Below, piece after piece: positions 3,899-27,182 of a stretch of 64,000 nt of DNA (position 1 is the stretch's first letter; every line of letters starts with the position of its first letter). The DNA is from an uncultured Piscirickettsiaceae bacterium (lineage in GTDB: Bacteria; Pseudomonadota; Gammaproteobacteria; GCF-002020875): positions 9,013-73,012 of the forward strand of contig CAYFMX010000005.1 in assembly GCA_964344325.1 (NCBI GenBank), in the 5' to 3' direction. The notes beneath the pieces are model-generated. The model worked only from the letters and a program-made list of their open reading frames with translations. It ran no database searches and had not been told where the DNA came from. The translations under genes were made by a program, and so were the position numbers.

Positions 3899-3920
3899 TA
3901 TGTTCTAGGTTTGTGCTGTG

Positions 3921-3949
3921 AAAAACCGTCCTTCGGGACGGTTTTTTTG
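3921..3949 (+). terminator. rho-independent terminator after porin-like gene
   Basis: aaaaaccgtccttcgggacggttttttt: GC stem, ttcg loop, T-run. Confidence 0.8.
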
Positions 3950-4062
3950 TTACAGATTGAGCAAGTCTTCCGGTGCAATGTACTATTCCTTGTGATCAGT
4001 GATACCAGTCATGCCTATTTCAGACTTGTGAAACCATTGGTATAGATTGAGTAAATCAGAAC

Positions 4063-5122: not shown

Positions 5123-6043
5123 ATGGCACTCAACATCACCTTCCGGCAACTGCGCGTTTTTGAATCAGTTGCCAAACACTCCAGCTTCACCCGCGCTGCC
5201 GAGGCGTTACACCTGACGCAACCAGCAGTTTCGATGCAGATCAAGCAACTGGAAGAGCACGTTGGTCTGCCACTATTCGACAATATCGGTAAAAAAGTAT
5301 TCCTGACAGAAGCGGGCAAGGCATTTTTTGAATACAGCAAATCGATCAGCCAACAACTTGACGAGGCGGAAAAATATATTGAGAGCGTGCAGGGCGTGCA
5401 TCGCGGCCATCTCAATTTAATGGTGGCGAGTACCGCCAACTATTTTGCGACCAACCTGCTGGCGACCTTCATCCGCCGCCATCCGGAAATCACCTTTTCG
5501 CTCAGCGTTACCAACCGCAAGCGCATTTTGCAGAGCCTTGCCGACAACGAGCCGGATCTAGTCATCATGGGGCAGCCACCGTTCAATCTCGACGTGGTAG
5601 CCGAGGCGTTTCTGGAAAATCCGTTGGTGGTAATCGCGGAAAAAAACCATCCGCTGACGAAGCGCAAACGAAAAATTTCACCCGTGGAATTGTTGGAAGA
5701 GTCATTCGTGATGCGTGAGCCGGGTTCCGGAACCCGCACTGCGATGGAGCGGTTTTTCTCGGATCGCGGTCTCAGTGTTGAGCAGCGGATGCAGTTCGGC
5801 AGCAACGAGGCAATCAAACAGGCGGTGCAAGCGGGACTAGGGTTAGCAGTCGTTTCGGCGCACACGATCCAGTTGGAGCAACAAGCGAATATGCTGAAAG
5901 TGCTGGATGTGGCGGAATTTCCAATCCGCCGCCAGTGGCATCTCGTTTATCGCAAAGGGAAATATTTATCACCCGTGGTCGATGCGTTCCGCCAGTTCGT
6001 GCTGGAAGAAGGCACTTCGCTGTCATTGAACACATCACCTTAA
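5123..6043 (+). CDS. LysR-family transcriptional regulator, CbbR-like
   Basis: N-terminus MALNITFRQLRVFESVAKHSSFTRAAEALHLTQPAVSMQIKQLEE is nearly the CbbR HTH signature. 306 aa. No cbb genes are adjacent. Confidence 0.85.
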   Translation: MALNITFRQLRVFESVAKHSSFTRAAEALHLTQPAVSMQIKQLEEHVGLPLFDNIGKKVFLTEAGKAFFEYSKSISQQLDEAEKYIESVQGVHRGHLNLMVASTANYFATNLLATFIRRHPEITFSLSVTNRKRILQSLADNEPDLVIMGQPPFNLDVVAEAFLENPLVVIAEKNHPLTKRKRKISPVELLEESFVMREPGSGTRTAMERFFSDRGLSVEQRMQFGSNEAIKQAVQAGLGLAVVSAHTIQLEQQANMLKVLDVAEFPIRRQWHLVYRKGKYLSPVVDAFRQFVLEEGTSLSLNTSP

Positions 6044-6080
6044 AAAAACACATCGCTTTCAGAAGTATGTTGCTGACATA

Positions 6081-6114
6081 AAAAAACCACATCAAACGAT
6101 GTGGTTTTTTTATT
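6081..6114. terminator. bidirectional rho-independent terminator between convergent genes
   Basis: aaaaaaccacatc-aaac-gatgtggttttttt: A-run, perfect 9-bp stem, T-run. Confidence 0.8.
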
Positions 6115-6154
6115 TTCAAACTGACGTTTAAACGCCAGTTTGATACCGGCAAAC

Positions 6155-6778
6155 TTAGTAGTACATGCCGTACATACCACCGCCGTACATGCCGTAACCC
6201 TGCATACCACCGCCGTACATGCCGTTGCCATACATACCGCCGCCATACATGCCATAGCCCTGCATACCGCCGTACATGCCTGGATTCATGCTGCCATACA
6301 TACCGCCACCGTACATACCATAGCCCTGCATACCGCCATACATGCCTGGATTCATGCTGCCATACATACCGCCACCGTACATGCCGTAGCCCTGCATACC
6401 ACCATTGCCATACATACCGCCGTCGCCGTACATACCACCACCATACATGCCGTAGCCCTGCATGCCGCCGTTGCCGTACATGCTGCCACCTTGCATACCG
6501 CCGTACATGCTACCACCCTGCATGCTACCGCCCATGCTTGGATGGATCATCTGGTTTTCAATTGGTTTCTTCTTCTTTGCGTCCATAGAATTCATGGAGT
6601 TCATAGAAGCCATAGAGTTCATGGAACCCATAGAAGACATGGAATTCATAGATGCCATAGAGTTCATGGAATTCATGGAGTCCATACCCTTGGAAGCATC
6701 CGCCCCTTCGCCTGCAACGCCGGACATGGAGAACAATGCTGCAGCTACAGCAACGAACATCTGGTTTTTACGGATCAT
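6155..6778 (-). CDS. secreted low-complexity Met/Gly/Tyr-rich repeat protein
   Basis: Sec signal peptide (MIRKNQMFVAVAAALFSMSGVAG/EG). Then (SMN/SMA/SMG)n Met-rich block, KKKK linker, and about 12 GGMYG/MQGYGMYG repeats ending …MYY. The DNA carries matching tandem repeats. The antisense His-rich ORF 6140..6805 is treated as artefact. Confidence 0.6.
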   Translation of the reverse strand: MIRKNQMFVAVAAALFSMSGVAGEGADASKGMDSMNSMNSMASMNSMSSMGSMNSMASMNSMNSMDAKKKKPIENQMIHPSMGGSMQGGSMYGGMQGGSMYGNGGMQGYGMYGGGMYGDGGMYGNGGMQGYGMYGGGMYGSMNPGMYGGMQGYGMYGGGMYGSMNPGMYGGMQGYGMYGGGMYGNGMYGGGMQGYGMYGGGMYGMYY

Positions 6779-7110
6779 ATTGATTTATCTACCTTTTGTT
6801 GTTGAGGTTGATTTGTGGTTAAACCAGCCTGTAGCGCAGGCCGGATACACTCTCAAAGAAAGCCTTTTGAGGGTATCACAAAATCTCATGCAGATTTACA
6901 GATTCTTGCAAATTCTTGAAAATCCCGTGCAAATTTCCCCGGCTTTCTCAATGGTTTTCTGATTTTCTCGCAGATATTTCGTGGATTTTTTTACGAATTT
7001 TCGCCCACCAGCCTGATCCCAAAACAACTGGATAGCGTTCGCCAAATGACTTGTCTATAATGAATCCCTTTTTTCTCGGGAATTCTTCCCAACCGAATCT
7101 GGAGCAGCCT

Positions 7111-8574
7111 ATGTCCATCCGCCTTGTCGAACAAGCGCTTACCTTTGATGATGTCCTGTTGATCCCTGCCCGTTCTTCCGTGATGCCCCGCGATGTTTCG
7201 CTCAAGACCAAGTTGACCCGCGATATTGAATTGAATATCCCGATGGTCTCCGCCGCAATGGACACGGTAACAGAATCCCGGCTAGCCATCGCACTGGCGC
7301 AGGAAGGCGGCATCGGCATCATCCATAAAAATATGAGTCCGGCAGAACAGGCGGCAGAAGTCTCCAAGGTCAAACGCTTCGAGAGCGGCACAGTCACTGA
7401 TCCGATCACTGTCACTCCAAATACTACGGTGCGTGAGGCAATTGATTTGACCCGGCAACTCGGCTTTTCCGGTTTTCCGGTTGTGGATGGGGACAATCTG
7501 GTCGGTATCGTCACCAACCGCGATTTGCGCTTCGAAATTGCTCTGGACGAGAAAGTTTCCAAAGTGATGACACCGAAAGAAAAGCTGATCACGGTCAAAG
7601 AAGGCGTAAAGAAAGAAGAAGTACAAACCTTGCTCCACCAGCACCGCATTGAAAAAGTGCTAGTCGTAAATGACGATTTTCACCTGCGTGGCATGATTAC
7701 TGTGAAAGATATGATCAAGGCAACCGACAAACCGGATGCTTGCAAGGATGAGCAAGAACGGTTGCGGGCAGGTGCGGCGGTTGGTACAGGCGCGGATACG
7801 GAAGAGCGCGTGGAATTGCTCGCCAATGCAGGCGTGGATGTCATTGTAGTTGATACAGCGCACGGTCATTCGCAAGGCGTATTGGATCGCGTACGTTGGG
7901 TGAAGCAGAATTTCCCACAAGTACAGGTCATTGGTGGCAATATCGCCACAGGTGCAGCAGCACGGGATCTGGTCGAGATGGGTGCAGATGCGGTGAAAGT
8001 AGGCATTGGCCCTGGCTCCATTTGCACAACGCGTATTGTCGCGGGTGTCGGTGTACCGCAAATCACAGCTGTCGCGAATGTAGTGGAAGCCCTAAAAGGG
8101 ACGGGCGTTCCAGCAATTGCAGACGGCGGTATCCGCTATTCTGGTGATATGTCCAAAGCGATTGTTGCAGGTGCGCATTCGATTATGGTTGGTGGGATGT
8201 TCGCAGGAACGGAAGAGGCGCCGGGCGAAGTAGAACTGTTCCAGGGGCGTTCATACAAATCCTATCGCGGTATGGGTTCACTTGGTGCGATGCAGAAAGG
8301 CTCTAGCGACCGTTATTTTCAGGATAGCGACTCCAATGTTGAAAAACTGGTTCCGGAAGGGATTGAAGGGCGCGTCCCTTATAAGGGTGCAATGAGTGCG
8401 ATTGTCCACCAGATGATGGGCGGGTTGCGTTCCAGTATGGGCTATACCGGCTGCGCTAATCTGGAAGAGATGCGCACCAAACCGGAGTTTGTGCAAGTGA
8501 CGGGTGCGGGCATGAAAGAGAGTCATGTGCATGATGTGACCATCACTAAGGAAGCGCCGAATTATCGGGTGTAA
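7111..8574 (+). CDS. guaB: inosine-5'-monophosphate dehydrogenase
   Basis: [20 protein letters not shown] start, CBS pair, catalytic [11 protein letters not shown] loop. Track ORF 7051 trimmed to the conserved start. Confidence 0.95.
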
Positions 8575-20370: not shown

Positions 20371-20670
20371 ATGGTTGATTGGAAACAAGTGACCGGCTTT
20401 GAGTGGGATGCCGGAAATGAACGGAAAAATGCAGAAAAGCATCATGTTAGCCGATTTGAGGCGGAGCAGGTGTTTTTTAATGCGCCATTGCTGATTTTGG
20501 ATGATGCAAAACATAGCCAGCACGAAGAACGCTACCATGCGCTTGGCAAAACGGATAACGCCAGATTGTTGCATACTACATTTACATTGCGTGCTGCTGG
20601 CACTTTGATTCGTGTAATTTCAGCGCGTGATATGCATCGCAAAGAGAAGGTGATTTATGGGCAAACTTAA
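20371..20670 (+). CDS. brnT: BrnT-family (DUF497) ribonuclease toxin
   Basis: FEWDAGNERKNAEKHHVSRFEAEQVF…RVISARDMHRKEK. Confidence 0.8.
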   Translation: MVDWKQVTGFEWDAGNERKNAEKHHVSRFEAEQVFFNAPLLILDDAKHSQHEERYHALGKTDNARLLHTTFTLRAAGTLIRVISARDMHRKEKVIYGQT

Positions 20671-20929
20671 AAAAATACCTGAATTCAAAACTGAAGCGGA
20701 AGAACGTGATTTTTGGGAAAATCATGACTCCACCGAGTATGTGAATTGGAAACAGGCTGAATCGGTTTCAATGCCAAATTTAAAACCCACCACCAAAACA
20801 ATTTCGATCCGGTTACCAGAAAGTTTGTTGAACAGCATTAAAATTGAAGCCAACAAGCGTGATATGCCTTATCAGTCGTTGATCAAAGCGTGGCTGGCTG
20901 ATGATGTGAAACAGAGTCGTGGTATTTAA
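20657..20929 (+). CDS. brnA: BrnA-family antitoxin (RHH/CopG-like)
   Basis: Overlaps brnT by 14 nt. EAEERDFWENHDSTEYVNW…ISIRLPESLLNSIKIEANKRDMPYQSLIKAWL. Confidence 0.8.
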   Translation: MGKLKKIPEFKTEAEERDFWENHDSTEYVNWKQAESVSMPNLKPTTKTISIRLPESLLNSIKIEANKRDMPYQSLIKAWLADDVKQSRGI

Positions 20930-21147: not shown

Positions 21148-21621
21148 TCACCGAATCCGATACCCCGCATGGCAGGTAACACAAGCCGCCGTCACTTCGG
21201 TCAACGCCCGATATGCTGGCACAGGATCACCCTCCTCCGCCCGCATCGCAAAACGGCTCGCCGCCCGGTGCATATTGGTTCCCGCCTGACGCATTCCCGC
21301 TGGCATGAACTGCCCCATATGATGCGCCCCGTGCGATGCCAGAGAACTCATACCTAACCGTTTTTCTGCCACAGCCGCCACCTGATCCATCTCATCATTC
21401 GCCATCAACGTGAGAATTTCATGAATCGCTGCCAAATGGTCACGCATATTGGCCATCATGTGCTGTTGCATCATTTCCGGTAATTGCACCAACTGTCGGG
21501 CATCTTCCTGCGCGGCCACTTGCATCGTAAAAATACTGCTTGAAAATAGGCAAAATGTTGCGGCGATAAAACGGGTTTTCCCTTGCATTTTTTTCATTTC
21601 ATATTCCTTTTCTGTTTTCAA
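21148..21621 (-). CDS. periplasmic class II c-type cytochrome (cytochrome c'/c-556-like)
   Basis: Signal peptide. Helical Met-rich body. Single C-terminal haem motif CVTCHAGYR. Confidence 0.6.
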   Translation of the reverse strand: MKTEKEYEMKKMQGKTRFIAATFCLFSSSIFTMQVAAQEDARQLVQLPEMMQQHMMANMRDHLAAIHEILTLMANDEMDQVAAVAEKRLGMSSLASHGAHHMGQFMPAGMRQAGTNMHRAASRFAMRAEEGDPVPAYRALTEVTAACVTCHAGYRIR

Positions 21622-21657
21622 TTTTTCATTTGATTTTTAAAAATCAGAATGCAATCG

Positions 21658-21996
21658 TTAGTTGTTTTTCTCTTGTAACCATTTCTCTATTCCAATTTCT
21701 TTTCGCCTCAGTAGATCACTTTTTCGCATCGCCAGTGATTTCTCAAATTCATCATCCGACAAATTTGGATCGCGCAGTTCGTTGAATATTTTGCACGGAA
21801 ATTCTTCACATAGCCCACAATGCCCAAGCTGTTTTTTGTTTTTGCAGCAATCATACAGCGGACAAATTCCATTTGGTATTTGCGATGTCCAGAACGGTTT
21901 TCCCGCTACATTGCCGCATCCTGCGCACTGTTTTCCGAGAAATTCACATTCACCACAATACAATCCACATACTGGCGCATAAGTTATTTGGCTCAT
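21658..21996 (-). CDS. Cys-rich DUF3795-like protein
   Basis: CGLYCGECEFLGKQCAGCGN…CPLYDCC…CGLCEEFPC cysteine pattern. Confidence 0.6.
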   Translation of the reverse strand: MSQITYAPVCGLYCGECEFLGKQCAGCGNVAGKPFWTSQIPNGICPLYDCCKNKKQLGHCGLCEEFPCKIFNELRDPNLSDDEFEKSLAMRKSDLLRRKEIGIEKWLQEKNN

Positions 21997-22015
21997 TTGA
22001 TTTTCACTTTTAATT

Positions 22016-22594
22016 TTAGATTGAAATTAGTTCAATATCTGGCAGGTTTTCAGAAACTTCCTGAACCGTTTTATCTTTCGTGAGCAATTCCACAATAATC
22101 GGCAACGGCTCCGCCCAAATTTCGGGTAAATTCGCTTCGCCTTGCGTGCGGATCGGATAAGCCAGTTTTTCTTCCGGTGGACAAAATTCTGCCGCCACAT
22201 CCAGCTTATTTCCCCGCGCATCAATCCGATACCAGCCGAATTTCTCCAAATAAACCGCATTCAATCCATGCAAACAAAACGGCGGCTCATCCGTAACCGT
22301 CAAACGCTGATAACACAAACCGGCTGGAATTTGGTTCGCCCGCAACAACGCCGCCAGCAGATGGCTTTTCGCATAGCAATAGCCCGTGCCATATTGGAGC
22401 ACATCGGATGCCTTGCACGTCACTGGATTCAATTGATAATCCCAACTGTGTTTAATTTCATCGCGTACAAAATTGAAACAATTTCGGGCAATTTCTTCGG
22501 GATTTTTTCTGTTTTCAGCGAGTTCTTTGGCTTTATTGAGAACAGTTGGATTTTCCCAGTCGATAAATTCAGACGGTTTCAGATATTGATTCAT
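22016..22594 (-). CDS. transglutaminase-like cysteine peptidase-fold protein
   Basis: …GTGYCYAKSHLLAALLRANQIPA… (catalytic Cys context) with downstream His/Asp candidates. Confidence 0.7.
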   Translation of the reverse strand: MNQYLKPSEFIDWENPTVLNKAKELAENRKNPEEIARNCFNFVRDEIKHSWDYQLNPVTCKASDVLQYGTGYCYAKSHLLAALLRANQIPAGLCYQRLTVTDEPPFCLHGLNAVYLEKFGWYRIDARGNKLDVAAEFCPPEEKLAYPIRTQGEANLPEIWAEPLPIIVELLTKDKTVQEVSENLPDIELISI

Positions 22595-22620
22595 TGTTGA
22601 TAAACCCGTTGATCAATTCG

Positions 22621-23325
22621 TCATTTCTTTCCACAAATATATTGCGCAATTAAACCGCCAGAAAATTCTTTTGATTCAATCGAAAAACCGGCGCGGGAAA
22701 ACATTTCTTCCAAAACCCAGGAATAGGTTGAATATTCATCCTGAAAATGTTCAATCGCATCGTTACGCAGAAAATCTCCACCTTGTGCAGCTTGCGCATC
22801 TACAAATGCGTTAATATTTTCGATGCAATGCTCTTCTTCAATCACCACATCCTGCATAAACAGTTTTCCGGCAGGCGATAAAATTGCATGCATTTTTTTC
22901 AGCGCAATCAGTTTCCAAAAATCGGGTAGATGATGAAAAGAGAATGAAGTAACAATAAAATCCGGCGCAACAATTTCTGGCGGAAGATTCAAAAATCCGC
23001 CTTTCAGAAAATGGATATTTTCCACGTTCGCTTCTGCGGCTTTGGTTTTCGCAAACGCAAGCATCGCATCCGAAACATCGACTGCAAACACCGTCAAACC
23101 GCGTTTCGCTGCTGCAATTGAGAATGTGCCTGTGCCACATCCAATATCGACTAAGGATTGCCCCGGTTTTACGGCAATGGCATCCAGAATTTTTTCATTT
23201 TCCGCCGCAACATCGCGGAATTTCGCATGGCTGGCATCGTATGCGGCGACCTCTGCTGGTGATGCGTAATCTTTTCCGATTTGGTGAAATTCATTGTATT
23301 GCCAGTCTTTAATATTGGTGTTCAT
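22621..23325 (-). CDS. class I SAM-dependent methyltransferase
   Basis: Motif I LVDIGCGTGTFSIAAAKRGLTVFAVDVSDAML. Rossmann MTase layout. Confidence 0.8.
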   Translation of the reverse strand: MNTNIKDWQYNEFHQIGKDYASPAEVAAYDASHAKFRDVAAENEKILDAIAVKPGQSLVDIGCGTGTFSIAAAKRGLTVFAVDVSDAMLAFAKTKAAEANVENIHFLKGGFLNLPPEIVAPDFIVTSFSFHHLPDFWKLIALKKMHAILSPAGKLFMQDVVIEEEHCIENINAFVDAQAAQGGDFLRNDAIEHFQDEYSTYSWVLEEMFSRAGFSIESKEFSGGLIAQYICGKK

Positions 23326-23425
23326 AGAAAATTTCTTGTTTAATTCTTATCAAAAACAGGAGATTCATGAATATGATATTTTGAAATTTATTATCTTTTT
23401 ATATTTAAAATTATATCAGAAATTA

Positions 23426-24145
23426 TTATTTGAAAAATTTATTTTTACAATGATTGAATATTAAACTTATCAAATCAAACAGGCGTCTTCTTGTTTCATT
23501 AAAATAATCTATATCAATTAACACCTTATTATCCTCTGGAGGATTTATTCCAACTTCTTTCAATTTGCTTAAGTAAATATCATTAGTCTTCCAGGAATTG
23601 TGAATACCTAAATCACGCCTAGCTTTTGCCTCAACATATATTGGCCATACAGAATCTAATGCATCTTCTTCCATAGACAAGAGAGAAATTATTTCTCTTT
23701 TATACTCATTAGGCCTTTTGTACATTATCTTATTAAGATATCCCTCTGCTAAATAACGTATTGCTGTGTCAATACTTCCAAACTCTAATAACTTATTAAG
23801 TTCTATATTGTTTTTTCCAAGCTTATTGGGGTGAAGACATAAAACTTCTATTAATAAATCTTTAATAAACCCCTCTACTTCAGAAATCATCAATATATGT
23901 GATTGTAGATATACGAATCTAACCAGCTTAAACTCCTCAATCTGAAGAGTGTTGTTTTCAAACAAATGATCTGGAAGGTTGCTACACATATCTAATACTC
24001 TTTTATGAAGTTCGGTTCCTTGGTTTTTTAATAAAACTTGATTGATATTTAAAGCAATGGCTCCAAATTCTCCAAGAGCAAGAAGACTTTTTCCTTTTTC
24101 AACATACAATTCATAAATTTTATTCATGATACATCCTCCATACAT
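23426..24145 (-). CDS. hypothetical AT-rich protein with HEPN-like Rx4HN motif (candidate abortive-infection-type effector)
   Basis: All-helical ~235-aa protein. …EAKARRDLGIHNSW… fits the HEPN Rx4-6H motif. GC far below neighbours. Start probably MNKIY at 24127. Confidence 0.4.
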   Translation of the reverse strand: MYGGCIMNKIYELYVEKGKSLLALGEFGAIALNINQVLLKNQGTELHKRVLDMCSNLPDHLFENNTLQIEEFKLVRFVYLQSHILMISEVEGFIKDLLIEVLCLHPNKLGKNNIELNKLLEFGSIDTAIRYLAEGYLNKIMYKRPNEYKREIISLLSMEEDALDSVWPIYVEAKARRDLGIHNSWKTNDIYLSKLKEVGINPPEDNKVLIDIDYFNETRRRLFDLISLIFNHCKNKFFK

Positions 24146-24199
24146 CTATATATCAAATAAATTGAAGACTAAAATATAAAATGAAAAATCTATTTTTTT

Positions 24200-24586
24200 C
24201 TATCCAAAAAACCACCCATACAACAACCGCCCTGGCATAAACGCAAACGCCCCCGCAATGAGAATCCCGCCAACATACAACCCAATCATATGATTCCGGT
24301 GCTTTTTGAACTGATTGTTCTGCACCGCAAAATAAGCAGTAGGCACAGAATAGAAAACCAGCACACTAAACAGATGCAGAAAACCAAAATGATCGAATAA
24401 TCGCGGCCCAACCTCGGCAGGCATAAACAGCGTGATTGTTGCTGTCAGTAGCATCAGTGCCATATACATTTTGCCGAATAACCGATGCATAGGCGTTCCT
24501 TTCCGACTGATCAATAGATACGCACCGATCAAAAATGCAGGAACGACCGTACCCAAATGTAAATAGGCCGATTGAAGATAATTCAT
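24200..24586 (-). CDS. small 4-TM membrane protein (DUF2306-like, tentative)
   Basis: 128 aa, four hydrophobic helices. Start is 4 nt from the upstream MTase stop, suggesting translational coupling. Confidence 0.55.
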   Translation of the reverse strand: MNYLQSAYLHLGTVVPAFLIGAYLLISRKGTPMHRLFGKMYMALMLLTATITLFMPAEVGPRLFDHFGFLHLFSVLVFYSVPTAYFAVQNNQFKKHRNHMIGLYVGGILIAGAFAFMPGRLLYGWFFG

Positions 24587-24590
24587 AGAA

Positions 24591-25340
24591 TCAAGCTGCT
24601 CGCATCATGTAAAACGTATATCCATAATTTTCATGATGCTTTTTGAATAATTCCATCTCGTTTTCTGTATCTTTAATCACTAGTTGCATCATTTCATCGC
24701 CGCTATTTTTCAACGCTGCGATATTTTCATGCAATGGATCGTAATAATTGCCCCACCACGCTTTTGAGGGTAATCGACGCGTTTCCAGAACTTCAAAACC
24801 GGAATTTTGAATCAATTCTATATTTTCCGATTCGGTTTTGATCCCCGGATAAATATTCTGCATCATTTGTGTTACGTTTTCTGATGAGTTCTCCGAGAAA
24901 TAACTCATCTCCGAAATCACCGCGATGCCATTTTTCGCCATCAATGGTCGCCATGCTTTTAACGCACCTTCAAAGGTAATGGTGTAGGCTGCGCCTTCTG
25001 ACCACAATAGATCAATCGATTCCAGTTCCCAATTGAGATTTCCCATATCGCATTCGATGGGTTCGATGAAATCCGCCAGCCCTTCTTCTCTGGCTTGTTG
25101 CATCATTTGATCCAGAAAATCTTTCGAGAAATCGACCGCTTTGACTTTGGTTCGATATTTTTTAGCAAGCATCAACGTGCCTGCTCCTGCACCACAACCG
25201 AGGTCGGCGATTCTGGGATTTGGTGGCAGTTCGGTGAATTGATTCAGAATATCATCCGAAAAATCTGCATCGCCGGGGCCTTGTCTTTTTAGGCCAACAT
25301 GCAGTTGAATCAATGCTTCAATATATTTTTCTTCTTCCAT
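24591..25340 (-). CDS. class I SAM-dependent methyltransferase
   Basis: Motif I IADLGCGAGAGTLMLAKKY. Rossmann MTase. Confidence 0.8.
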   Translation of the reverse strand: MEEEKYIEALIQLHVGLKRQGPGDADFSDDILNQFTELPPNPRIADLGCGAGAGTLMLAKKYRTKVKAVDFSKDFLDQMMQQAREEGLADFIEPIECDMGNLNWELESIDLLWSEGAAYTITFEGALKAWRPLMAKNGIAVISEMSYFSENSSENVTQMMQNIYPGIKTESENIELIQNSGFEVLETRRLPSKAWWGNYYDPLHENIAALKNSGDEMMQLVIKDTENEMELFKKHHENYGYTFYMMRAA

Positions 25341-25820
25341 TAGATATTCTTTTTAGGAAGGTTTTCTTCCAATTTTTCACGAATTCTTAAATGCATATTT
25401 GTTATTTATATCTCTTCTATCGACAAGATTACAATCCGGTCTTTTTTGCATGCTTTTTAATTCAGATACCATTTATGAAAAGTTATGATTGTGTTTGGAG
25501 GTGTAAGAATCCCGGTTTTTCCAAACTTCATTTATGATTTGGTCTTTATACATTTTCATCATTCTTCACATTGCACAGATTTTTGTATCAATTTGTTTTA
25601 CAAATAGAAATAACTTTATGGAAAATAGGCTAGATATTTTTCGAAATAGGTTTTGGCCACTTTTCAGATTTGAAAAATACACAAGATCCTCGCAAGATAA
25701 GTATAATGCCATATTCGCTTGCTATTTGTTATGAAGCTGTTTTGCTAAATAACGAACAAAGTAACTTGTTAAAAAGTATTATGGTAGATAGTCAAGTGTA
25801 GCTAATTGTTATATTTCTTA

Positions 25821-26729
25821 CTATTTATCAGAGTGATACGTTGATAATCCTGGAGCAATTACACGGCTTTCAACATCATAAAGAGTAAGATGATTTCTTA
25901 GCCAAAGCTGGTAATCGTAACCTTCCAAATGATGATCTTCAGTACAATCTACATTCCAATGGTGCAACCAATAACCAACAACTGCTGCTCTAACTGATAG
26001 CTTAAGGCAGCCATTACTCATATTAAAGTCATGTTCAATTGTTTTTGGGTATTTCACATTTTTTTCATTTGGATGAGGTACTAACTCCAAATTAACCATA
26101 CGATTCCATTGGTAATCTGTTGAAGCATTTCCTACAGAAGCGTTAGGATCAAAGCTATTTCCTATTTCAATAGATACAATTCTTGTTAAGGCGTATGAAC
26201 GATATGGGTTTTTAGGCTTAGATTCATCATATGCCCTAACATACCAATGTATACCATTGTCAAACATTGCATGAGGTCTAATTATTTTTTTCGACAATCC
26301 ATTGTTGACTGAGCGATAAGATATATTTAATTGCTTCATCCCCGATATAGCTCTAGTCACTTTTTCTAATAGCTCTATTCTAGGCAATGAAAGTCTTTGA
26401 GGGCATAATATTCCGTCAAACTCAGACATACCAAGAGCCTCACTTACCTTTGCAGTACGAAGCTTAGAAAGAGCGGAGCTTATTGGCAACTCAAAAACTG
26501 GCTTGAAAGTCTCCTCAAGAATTTCGTATTTCTTCGAGCTTTGGTTAAGCATAAGGTTTTGTTCAGAAAGCTCTTTGTATAGCCTTATATCTCTAGTTGC
26601 GGCAGCCTCTCCAATACCAAACCTTAACGTCAAATCTCCCCTTGAGATCCAACCTCGAAATCTAAGCATGAATTCCAGATATTCCAACCTATCATAAACT
26701 ATCTTTGATAACTCGTTGATTTCTTTCAT
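25821..26729 (-). CDS. brxR: BrxR/CapW-family transcriptional regulator (wHTH–WYL–WCX)
   Basis: N-terminus IVYDRLEYLEFMLRFRGWISRGDLTLRFGIGEAAATRDIRLYKEL follows the BrxR wHTH consensus (DRL..LEFIEFRL.W.G.INR.DL…FG.S…DLR.Y.EL). Central …NGIHWYVRAYDESK… is the WYL motif. About 300 aa. Confidence 0.8.
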   Translation of the reverse strand: MKEINELSKIVYDRLEYLEFMLRFRGWISRGDLTLRFGIGEAAATRDIRLYKELSEQNLMLNQSSKKYEILEETFKPVFELPISSALSKLRTAKVSEALGMSEFDGILCPQRLSLPRIELLEKVTRAISGMKQLNISYRSVNNGLSKKIIRPHAMFDNGIHWYVRAYDESKPKNPYRSYALTRIVSIEIGNSFDPNASVGNASTDYQWNRMVNLELVPHPNEKNVKYPKTIEHDFNMSNGCLKLSVRAAVVGYWLHHWNVDCTEDHHLEGYDYQLWLRNHLTLYDVESRVIAPGLSTYHSDK

Positions 26730-26792
26730 AACAATACCTTCGTTGTTTGTTCATACATTGTGGCATAGTATGATATTAATGCAATCTTGACA

Positions 26793-26807
26793 TAATCAAA
26801 TTGATTA
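26793..26807. promoter_or_regulatory. palindromic candidate operator in the brxR promoter region
   Basis: TAATCAAaTTGATTA perfect 7-bp arms. Lies between divergent brxR and the small ORF at 26867. Confidence 0.35.
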
Positions 26808-26866
26808 GATATCATCATCTTTAAGTCATGATTGTGTGGCGAAATTTATATAAAGAGGAGTTGATT

Positions 26867-27040
26867 ATGGCAACTAATGGAGTTTCTGGTGATAATAGAA
26901 GACATGGGGCGATAAAAAATCGTTCGCAAACAAAGCATTCTTCTGGAAAGCACTGGATTAAGAGAAACACTGATACAGGACAATTTATGAATGTCAAAGC
27001 TGATGGGAAAAAATTTAAGGGAGTACGTAAAGAAAAATAA
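26867..27040 (+). CDS. small basic hypothetical protein (57 aa)
   Basis: MATNGVSGDNRRHGAIKNRSQTKHSSGKHWIKRNTDTGQFMNVKADGKKFKGVRKEK. Divergent from brxR. Good RBS (AAGAGGAG). Confidence 0.3.
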   Translation: MATNGVSGDNRRHGAIKNRSQTKHSSGKHWIKRNTDTGQFMNVKADGKKFKGVRKEK

Positions 27041-27182
27041 AATTATTTGAAGTACTAAATTACATTAATCAGGACACTATAATATCCTGATTAATGCGTA
27101 TTCGCTGTCCTCAAACAGGGGCATATGCTGTTCAACAAAATAAAAAATATTCATGAAAAACAGACTGCCTCAAACCACAATC

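Follow-up and report, generated by a model that had tools for sequence, protein, structure and literature searches.

A divergent pair of a BrxR-family repressor gene and a 57-amino-acid PDC-S38 gene as the probable functional unit of a low-GC island in a Piscirickettsiaceae bacterium

The locus and its divergent gene pair

The subject of this work is a regulator gene of the brxR/capW family and the genes around it in a stretch of 64,000 nucleotides (nt), hereafter the window, from an uncultured Piscirickettsiaceae bacterium (assembly GCA_964344325.1, contig CAYFMX010000005.1, positions 9,013 to 73,012 of the forward strand). An earlier note on this DNA had placed the regulator at the head of eight genes on one strand and had taken them as a candidate for an undescribed defence or stress locus. 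All 10 open reading frames (ORFs) named in it are present at the given coordinates and strands, and a conserved ORF of 57 amino acids (aa) on the opposite strand, 26867-27040 (+), was overlooked there, opening 1 base past position 26866. This gene, here called small57, and brxR are arranged back to back around a palindrome, and the two together probably represent the functional unit of the locus. The features of this pair are as follows.

25821 to 26729, minus strand: repressor gene of the brxR/capW family, 302 aa, winged helix-turn-helix (wHTH)-WYL-WCX architecture
26867 to 27040, plus strand: small57, gene of a 57-aa basic protein, PADLOC candidate PDC-S38, divergent from brxR
26793 to 26807, strand not applicable: BrxR-box, perfect 7+7 palindrome TAATCAA-T-TTGATTA, putative operator
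26787 to 26815, plus strand: predicted promoter into small57, with -35 TTGACA (26787-26792), a 17-nt spacer and -10 TATCAT (26810-26815)
26770 to 26799, minus strand: candidate brxR promoter, with -35 TTGATT (26799-26794), 18 nt and -10 TATCAT (26775-26770)
27063 to 27096, strand not applicable: hairpin in the gap that separates the small57 stop from the convergent bolA

The regulator

The product of 25821-26729 is, as had been proposed, a WYL regulator of the BrxR/CapW type, and its membership in this family is secure, as judged from full-length matches to solved structures and from three family-specific Pfam domains. The best match is to the E. fergusonii BrxR (7QFZ; phmmer E=3e-51, query residues 4-296), followed by CapW 7TB5 (E=7e-26), CapW 9C5G (7e-22), the Acinetobacter BrxR 7T8K (8e-19) and CapW 7TB6 (2e-18). 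PF26109 WHD_BrxR, PF13280 WYL and PF26107 BrxR_CTD are recorded for the identical database protein, and the Pfam copy searched directly yielded WYL alone. Thus, the regulator is an added member of a well-described family. When residues are mapped onto the numbering of the structure of CapW with single-stranded DNA (ssDNA) as in PMC11662680, S140, R165 and R183 align with the ssDNA-contact residues S144, R168 and R184 of CapW, and the fourth contact residue is changed.

Among members of this family, capW is located on the opposite strand upstream of the cyclic-oligonucleotide-based anti-phage signalling system (CBASS), where CapW binds palindromic sites that extend over the -10 element of the promoter (PMC9122588). 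ssDNA releases CapW from DNA (PMC11662680), and V. cholerae BrxR responds likewise (PMC13622015). BrxR autoregulation is known, and BrxR homologues head co-directional defence operons (PMC9122601). At the locus studied here, PADLOC revealed no known defence system among the co-directional genes, and the sole defence-related neighbour is the candidate PDC-S38 on the opposite strand.

The small gene small57

small57 is already catalogued as the PADLOC candidate PDC-S38 (PDLC05010; E=4.8e-28, residues 1-57 on positions 1-57 of a profile of 57), whose profile also matches three distant small57 homologues. It further matches phrog_12550, a PHROG family without assigned function (E=1.4e-16), and has no Pfam or NCBIfam family. 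An AGGAG Shine-Dalgarno sequence is located 7 nt upstream of its ATG, the predicted protein carries a net charge of about +11 by direct count, and 25 of its residues do not vary between Gammaproteobacteria and Bacteroidota. Compared with two homologues, nucleotide differences at codon positions 1/2/3 amount to 8/2/30 and 6/1/27, and because substitutions fall mainly at third codon positions, the gene is judged to be under purifying selection. An exhaustive profile search gave 1,214 clusters at 50% identity, with the family spread over Proteobacteria, Bacteroidota and prophages, and the best 150 profile matches are all stand-alone proteins of 43-134 aa with no domain fusions. The GC content at third codon positions (GC3) is 0.24 for small57 and 0.30 for brxR, low values shared by the two genes, unlike most of the co-directional array.

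Downstream of small57, the inverted repeat at 27063-27096 has 17-nt arms that are 88% complementary and is not followed by a T-run; this hairpin is probably a terminator, possibly a bidirectional one. Its arms hold TAATCA...TGATTA, half-sites of the BrxR-box, spaced 18 nt apart.

Conservation of the brxR/small57 pair

The comparison set for BrxR comprised 80 genome loci plus several metagenome contexts, each searched with every protein of the island. In the first three BrxR contexts, the divergent 57-aa ORF was the only gene in common with the window. As an iterated profile search revealed, 14 non-self loci of BrxR carry small57 in this divergent place, and wherever brxR and small57 occur in one locus among all those fetched, they are adjacent and on opposite strands (20/20). 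The pair is kept even where identity is down to 41-47% for BrxR, the small protein being still 52-63% identical there. In Cocleimonas (L006) and in an Oceanospirillum genome (L019), the two genes stand by themselves, flanked by convergent genes, and because of this isolation brxR/small57 is, by gene context, a self-contained module. As a fallback, the earlier note had considered a BrxR left behind without its cargo; this stands only in part, since the conserved cargo is the divergent PDC-S38 gene, with a putative operator in its core promoter. The brxR/small57 pairing, the box consensus and its placement in the promoter were not found in the literature searched.

Operator and promoters

The palindrome TAATCAATTTGATTA at 26793-26807, which the earlier note had pointed out, is present and perfect and occurs as a single copy in the window. 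Its suggested role as an operator is strengthened by the conserved motif in BrxR loci and by its fixed place in the promoter, so that it can be regarded as a likely operator and, on the comparative data, not as a chance feature. The motif obtained from aligned brxR/small57 intergenic regions is TCA-N3-TGA-N2-4-GT[CA]A, with a consensus of roughly GATCA-N3-TGAT-N-ATGTCAA. This BrxR-box is found upstream of brxR in 34 of 90 BrxR loci (11/22 with small57 and 23/68 without it), upstream of small57 in 0 of 134 loci that have no BrxR, and in 14 of 3000 random 300-nt windows (0.5%). Because of the presence in 34/90 BrxR loci as against 0/134 small57 loci without BrxR, it is concluded that the box follows the regulator and not the small gene.

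The predicted promoter of small57 has 11/12 consensus matches and is the top site in a scan of 6.3 kb, with the palindrome filling its 17-nt spacer. The same layout is observed in all 12 loci that carry both box and small57, namely a -35 element with at least 5/6 matches, a 16-18-nt spacer with the palindrome and a -10 element with at least 4/6 matches. On the other strand, the candidate brxR promoter has 9/12 consensus matches with its -35 element over one half-site; taken alone it is a weak prediction, but it is consistent with the known BrxR autoregulation (PMC9122601).

In a further group of BrxR loci (L027, L028, L030, L034, L038, L041-L044 and L047), brxR is divergent from a four-gene operon with equal gene lengths, and genes 1-3 of this operon in L034 are annotated as Wadjet jetA, jetB and jetC (DUF3375, DUF4194 and SbcC-like). 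Since most of the listed Wadjet loci carry the same BrxR-box, control of Wadjet by a WYL repressor is suggested.

PDC-S38 in other genomic contexts

Elsewhere, the divergent position beside brxR is occupied by Wadjet jetABC, by a CBASS operon led by small57 or by a DUF1508-HNH operon led by small57. In L014 (6532-9858), small57 opens a type II-like CBASS operon and is followed by genes for a YdjM-like protein, a SMODS cyclase and ThiF/Cap2, and in L010 (8651-9878) the operon has the order small57-DUF1508-HNH. In L087-L091 and L093 (about 6001-8300), small57 leads Multi_ubiq-ThiF(DUF6791)-BubE operons. In Labilibaculum, small57 shares an overlap with the opening gene of a Multi_ubiq-ThiF-BubE operon and lies opposite an XRE regulator, and in Alteromonas it is located between such an operon and a type I restriction-modification (R-M) system with an HTH_3-Peptidase_M78 regulator. 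The regulator types ahead of small57 hence include BrxR, XRE and HTH_3-Peptidase_M78. A DUF1508 protein is encoded directly 3' of small57 in 12 loci, and further recurrent neighbours are TIR_2, caspase, YgjP, the S subunit of type I R-M systems and IrrE-like peptidases. Literature searches combining DUF1508 with 'defense' returned no functional description. Likewise, the link of PDC-S38 to BrxR-type repressors and its lead place in CBASS, Bub or DUF1508-HNH operons were not found in the literature searched.

A co-directional gene within 300 bp of small57 is present in about 36% of distinct contexts, and because about half of the contexts are convergent, small57 appears to be often monocistronic. 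In L092 (Flavihumibacter sp., Bacteroidota; 6001-7097), the next gene after small57 starts 9 nt further on in the same direction and encodes a 302-aa protein without a Pfam match; this protein equals BrxR in length.

The downstream array

On the strand of brxR, the island contains the following features beyond the regulator, with the toxin-antitoxin pair at its far edge.

25341 to 25820, strand not applicable: AT-rich spacer of 480 bp, from brxR to the downstream array
24591 to 25340, minus strand: class I S-adenosylmethionine-dependent methyltransferase (SAM-MTase), here MT1 (Pfam)
24200 to 24586, minus strand: DUF2306 membrane protein, start 4 nt past the MT1 stop (Pfam)
23426 to 24145, minus strand: putative HEPN-fold protein, R-x4-H invariant, GC 0.29
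22621 to 23325, minus strand: class I SAM-MTase, here MT2 (Pfam)
22016 to 22594, minus strand: transglutaminase-like protein, Transglut_core (Pfam)
21658 to 21996, minus strand: DUF3795 protein (Pfam)
21148 to 21621, minus strand: putative cytochrome c' (Pfam, below cut-off)
20371 to 20929, plus strand: BrnT/BrnA toxin-antitoxin pair, far edge of the low-GC island

The proposal that BrxR heads a functional eight-gene defence or stress array was not borne out, in view of the missing comparative linkage, the operator-free spacer of 480 bp and the mosaic GC3 values. Linkage was searched by tblastn (E<=1e-4) within 10-kb flanks at 83 non-self loci, whose BrxR homologues are 38-78% identical. Three contigs of the same strain apart, not one of the seven genes has a homologue in the 10-kb surroundings of brxR (0 of these 83 other loci), and hence the idea that brxR and the downstream genes travel together fails in this comparison of orthologous loci. 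A co-directional gene at most 150 bp from brxR is present in 40 relative loci, with gaps mostly of -4 to +30 bp, and these genes include 10 type I R-M methylases and 10 SNF2 helicases of the HmaA/DrmD type. Because defence genes account for 20 of these 40 close co-directional genes and the gaps are mostly at most 30 bp, it can be stated that the BrxR clade does head defence operons, yet with tight spacing.

The spacer at 25341-25820, by comparison, is 480 bp long with a GC content of about 0.31, and contains no copy of the BrxR-box and no Rfam match. This and the other island spacers gave no match to any of the fetched loci by tblastx or blastn, and their interpretation as relics of lost cargo was set aside on these searches. 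A possible promoter of the MTase gene itself, spotted by eye, is TTGTAA(25434-25429)-18 nt-TATAAA(25410-25405), about 65 nt upstream of the MT1 start. Past this spacer, the array genes follow one another at short distances of 4-100 bp. In gene order from brxR down to cytochrome c', the GC3 values are 0.30/0.42/0.50/0.24/0.37/0.45/0.36/0.56, with 0.53-0.62 for the flanking housekeeping genes, and the HEPN gene has 0.24 as against 0.42-0.50 for its neighbours. Because of this GC3 mosaic of 0.24-0.56, the array is, on compositional grounds, taken to have been put together piecemeal, and because of its host-like value of 0.56 the cytochrome gene may be native and not island cargo.

Neither does the content of the array point to a known system. 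For MT1, the nearest proteins of solved structure (3T7R etc., E about 5e-37) are putative methyltransferases that are themselves uncharacterised, MT2 resembles small-molecule methyltransferases, and direct reading revealed no (D/N/S)PP(Y/F/W) or PCQ motif in either. A role of the two enzymes as DNA methylases of an R-M type was rejected, given the missing catalytic motif and the small-molecule or uncharacterised relatives. In PADLOC their matches are marginal ones to MTase_II (E 8e-4 or weaker) and those to the generic SAM-binding part of Mad2, so that the earlier note's statement that the gene set fits no known defence system holds for defence models, with generic similarity of the SAM-methyltransferase domain as the only PADLOC signal. 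Plasmid homologues of MT1 (at most 37% identical) were examined in three contexts, none of which has DUF2306 or BrxR close by, and homologues of the transglutaminase-like protein, 62-66% identical, are solitary on plasmids of Methylomonas, Acinetobacter and Azoarcus. A conserved operon of the array genes was dismissed on account of these unrelated contexts of the plasmid MT1 homologues and the solitary transglutaminase homologues. Taken together, the seven downstream genes look like unrelated accessory cargo in the same low-GC variable island, and, as far as gene content and context can tell, the proposed system of eight genes most likely reflects neighbours brought together by chance.

One plasmid carries both a BrxR homologue and a relative of an array gene. 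On the Methylomonas sp. DH-1 plasmid NZ_CP014361.1 (L244, 2898-5609), a BrxR homologue of 38% identity adjoins an unannotated PDC-S38 ORF (3916-4041) that is C-terminally truncated, a site resembling the BrxR-box is present, and about 1 kb further on lies a fusion of NAD(P)H-oxidoreductase and transglutaminase, 66% identical to the transglutaminase-like protein of the window. The three genes lie inside 2 kb.

The HEPN-like protein

The product of 23426-24145 has no match among Pfam, NCBIfam, PADLOC and PHROG models, and the GC content of its gene (0.29) is the lowest in the island. An indexed search yielded 27 homologues, and in this 27-member family the block VEAKARRDLGVHN, which contains R-x4-H, is invariant. 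The AlphaFold model has a mean predicted local distance difference test score (pLDDT) of 92.8, and the modelled four-helix fold together with the conserved R-x4-6-H agrees with what defines HEPN proteins. The HEPN-like call of the earlier note is thus upheld by the invariant R-x4-H block and the confident model. The homologues are solitary and occur in unrelated contexts. Compared with HEPN toxins and abortive-infection HEPN proteins (SO_3166, PDB 5YEP; HEPN/MNT, 7AE2), the window protein has an additional N-terminal helical region, and no MNT or antitoxin gene adjoins its gene. It is solitary, without a link to BrxR, and neither Pfam nor PADLOC has a model for it. The gene at 23426-24145 may encode a so far undescribed HEPN RNase of the stand-alone type, or it may be a candidate for abortive infection. 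In L237, a homologue lies at the edge of a prophage beside genes for an Exo_endo_phos protein and a 774-aa TIR protein.

The low-GC island and its edges

The low-GC island spans about 6.8 kb (~20.3-27.15 kb) between ybaK/trmJ/panC and bolA/PBP4, and contains no transposase or integrase. All island proteins are singletons in 90%-identity clustering, and an exact look-up of BolA for an empty insertion site returned only contigs of the same strain. Rfam gave nothing at the locus (E<=1) or in the whole window at the gathering threshold, and no transfer RNA (tRNA) was found; by these empty scans a riboswitch, a small RNA or a tRNA-linked integration site at the locus was ruled out.

Domain assignments given earlier for the neighbours agree with Pfam for the SAM-MTases, Transglut_core, DUF3795 and BrnT/BrnA, and the membrane protein could be assigned to DUF2306. 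The cytochrome c' call for 21148-21621 is only weakly sustained: CVTCH is present at the C-terminus, but the Pfam score of 22.1 bits lies below the cut-off of 26.5 and there is no match in the PDB. Other gene callers put the start of this gene 8 codons later, giving 149 aa. At the far edge, the BrnT/BrnA pair was recovered by PF04365 BrnT_toxin (E=6e-23) and PF12441 CopG_antitoxin (E=6e-36), its two genes overlap by 14 nt, and the NCBIfam BrnA model scores 51.8 bits, under its 60-bit cut-off. When L002 (7181-7724), a sister metagenome contig, is compared with window positions 20371-20929, the island is 99-100% identical, and because BrnA is 99% but BrnT only 57% identical, a recombination breakpoint within the toxin-antitoxin pair at the island edge is suggested.

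A perfect 15-nt inverted repeat, TTTGTTGAACAGCAT / ATGCTGTTCAACAAA, at 20824-20838 and 27125-27139 with 6,286 nt between its arms, brackets nearly the whole low-GC island, with one arm inside brnA and the other between small57 and bolA. By a rough estimate, ~0.03-0.1 such repeat pairs of 15 nt are expected by chance. As ends of a mobile element these arms were set aside, given the arm within brnA and the absence of transposase and integrase.

Comparison with known systems

The locus resembles CapW-controlled CBASS (Blankenchip et al. 2022, PMC9122588; 2024, PMC11662680), in which the gene of a repressor of the same wHTH-WYL-WCX architecture precedes its target on the other strand, with the same kind of palindromic operator within the core promoter of the target. 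Of the four ssDNA-contact residues, three are kept here and one is changed, and the relative L014 has a small57-led CBASS operon in the divergent position. However, the target in the window consists of one 57-aa gene and includes neither a cyclase nor an effector, the putative operator lies in the -35/-10 spacer and not over the -10 as for CapW, and the match of the window BrxR to its E. fergusonii counterpart (E=3e-51) is closer than those to CapW, which are at E=7e-26 or weaker.

With the BrxR of the E. fergusonii pEFER island of bacteriophage exclusion (BREX) and BrxU (Picton et al. 2022, PMC9122601; 7QFZ), the regulator shares its best full-length match and the same three domains. There, too, an inverted-repeat operator lies beside the brxR promoter, and the family co-localises with diverse defence islands. 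The pEFER BrxR, however, regulates BREX genes on its own strand by way of repeats of 11 bp that are 5 bp apart, whereas downstream of the window brxR there is neither BREX nor any other known system, and the window-type box has arms of 7-10 bp and a centre of 1-3 bp and is common to the divergent promoter. The entry PDC-S38 in PADLOC, which small57 matches over its full length, is likewise a single small gene enriched beside defence genes; there it is a computational candidate.

Interpretation and alternatives

The reading we regard as probable is that brxR and small57 constitute a two-gene, back-to-back module of the CapW style, probably derepressed by ssDNA, with small57 as its sole cargo. 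Repression, the ssDNA signal and an anti-phage role of the small protein are what we infer by analogy with the characterised regulators. According to this proposal, a BrxR dimer would bind the palindrome at 26793-26807. The latter fills the -35/-10 spacer of small57 and also overlaps the -35 element of the brxR promoter candidate, so that both genes would be repressed in uninfected cells. ssDNA arising from phage attack, including restricted infection, or from DNA damage would enter the WYL pocket, as for CapW and V. cholerae BrxR, and part the winged helices, with release of the operator. This would cause a burst of the small protein, which with its charge of about +11 and its predicted three-stranded beta-sheet would most likely have nucleic acid or a partner defence system as its target, and, as a guess, might interfere with phage replication or assist neighbouring systems.

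Several observations weigh against this proposal. The pairing is recurrent and not obligate: small57 is present in only about 12-25% of the BrxR loci of the clade, and among loci collected with small57 as the seed, a BrxR-like gene accompanies it in just 10 of 80 from metagenomes and in 0 of 63 from viruses or prophages. The fourth ssDNA contact, R164 of CapW (Rl), corresponds to H161 here, with HWYVR in place of the RWHVR motif, and H161 is also in the clade consensus IHWYVRAY. The three-stranded sheet with basic tails comes from a structure model of small57 that is only moderately confident (pLDDT 75), a Foldseek search with this model against the PDB gave no match at E<=0.001, and literature searches returned no mention of PDC-S38, a computational candidate. 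No minus-strand terminator is predicted between brxR and the first MTase, so that read-through from brxR could place the array under control of the brxR promoter. Finally, L244, as the sole recurrence of BrxR with an array gene, gives a weak hint of an association; because the 83 other BrxR loci show no such neighbour, this co-location is a probable outcome of a shared gene pool and not of functional linkage.

The earlier model, in which BrxR represses a co-directional seven-gene operon that would be an undescribed defence or stress system, could draw on the eight genes on one strand, the array gaps of 4-100 bp, the undetected terminator after brxR, the frequent place of BrxR homologues at the head of co-directional defence operons (PMC9122601) and the common occurrence of the HEPN fold in abortive-infection proteins. 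We hold it to be very unlikely in view of the count of 0/83 other BrxR loci, of a 480-bp operator-free spacer where relatives have mostly at most 30 bp, of GC3 values from 0.24 to 0.56, of MTases that show generic SAM-MTase similarity in PADLOC and no DNA-methylase motif, and of HEPN-like and transglutaminase homologues that travel alone. A milder variant keeps the module as the conserved unit and lets read-through of brxR incidentally render the MTase-DUF2306 pair, and perhaps more genes, damage-inducible in this strain. The co-directional genes and the missing terminator prediction from brxR to the MTase would allow this, but the plausible own promoter ~65 nt upstream of the MTase start, the long untranslated AT-rich stretch and the lack of comparative support leave it unlikely. 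Slightly less likely still is an orphan regulator that lost its co-directional cargo and now only autoregulates, with small57 as an independent neighbour that is constitutive or otherwise controlled. Such a view accommodates the occurrence of small57 beside HTH_3-Peptidase_M78 or XRE regulators and the many small57 loci without BrxR, which form the majority, and the 480-bp spacer could be a deletion scar, though one with no recognisable remnant; it is opposed by the operator between -35 and -10 of small57 in 12/12 loci, by the adjacent divergent pairing in 20/20 and by the isolated pair in L006 and L019.

What the small protein does once it is made is a separate matter. It is tentatively considered that PDC-S38 is a genuine player in immunity, switched on by repressors that sense ssDNA or DNA damage (BrxR/CapW here, HTH-IrrE-like ones elsewhere), and serving as a minimal stand-alone effector or as a generic primer of CBASS, Bub and DUF1508-HNH systems, although this is at present doubtful. 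No less doubtful is the alternative that small57 encodes a non-immune peptide of mobile elements, induced by damage or stress and binding nucleic acid or acting in regulation, which would be present in defence islands by way of shared damage-responsive promoters. The 63 viral or prophage contigs, the PHROG match, the monocistronic arrangement in about half of the loci, the very basic composition and the position behind regulators of two DNA-damage-sensing types would all suit such a peptide. Against it, small57 frequently opens genuine defence operons (CBASS in L014, Bub in L087-L093) and is listed as a phage defence candidate in PADLOC.

Significance

As the eight-gene BrxR defence system is unsupported, cloning and phage challenge aimed at the wrong genes can be saved, and the module of ~1.2 kb at 25821-27040 offers a simple system in which the response of a WYL repressor to infection could be tested. 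The BrxR-box in a portable divergent promoter can serve to predict BrxR regulons in the clade, including those of Wadjet, CBASS and type I R-M loci. At the same time, a regulatory handle is gained on PDC-S38, a very widespread 57-aa family heading several unrelated defence operons. If PDC-S38 is indeed a player in immunity, the window would hold its minimal regulated form, repressor and effector alone, and the small protein would be either among the smallest stand-alone anti-phage effectors or a generic accessory of other systems. If PDC-S38 is functional, it would represent a tiny damage-inducible component common to several immune systems.

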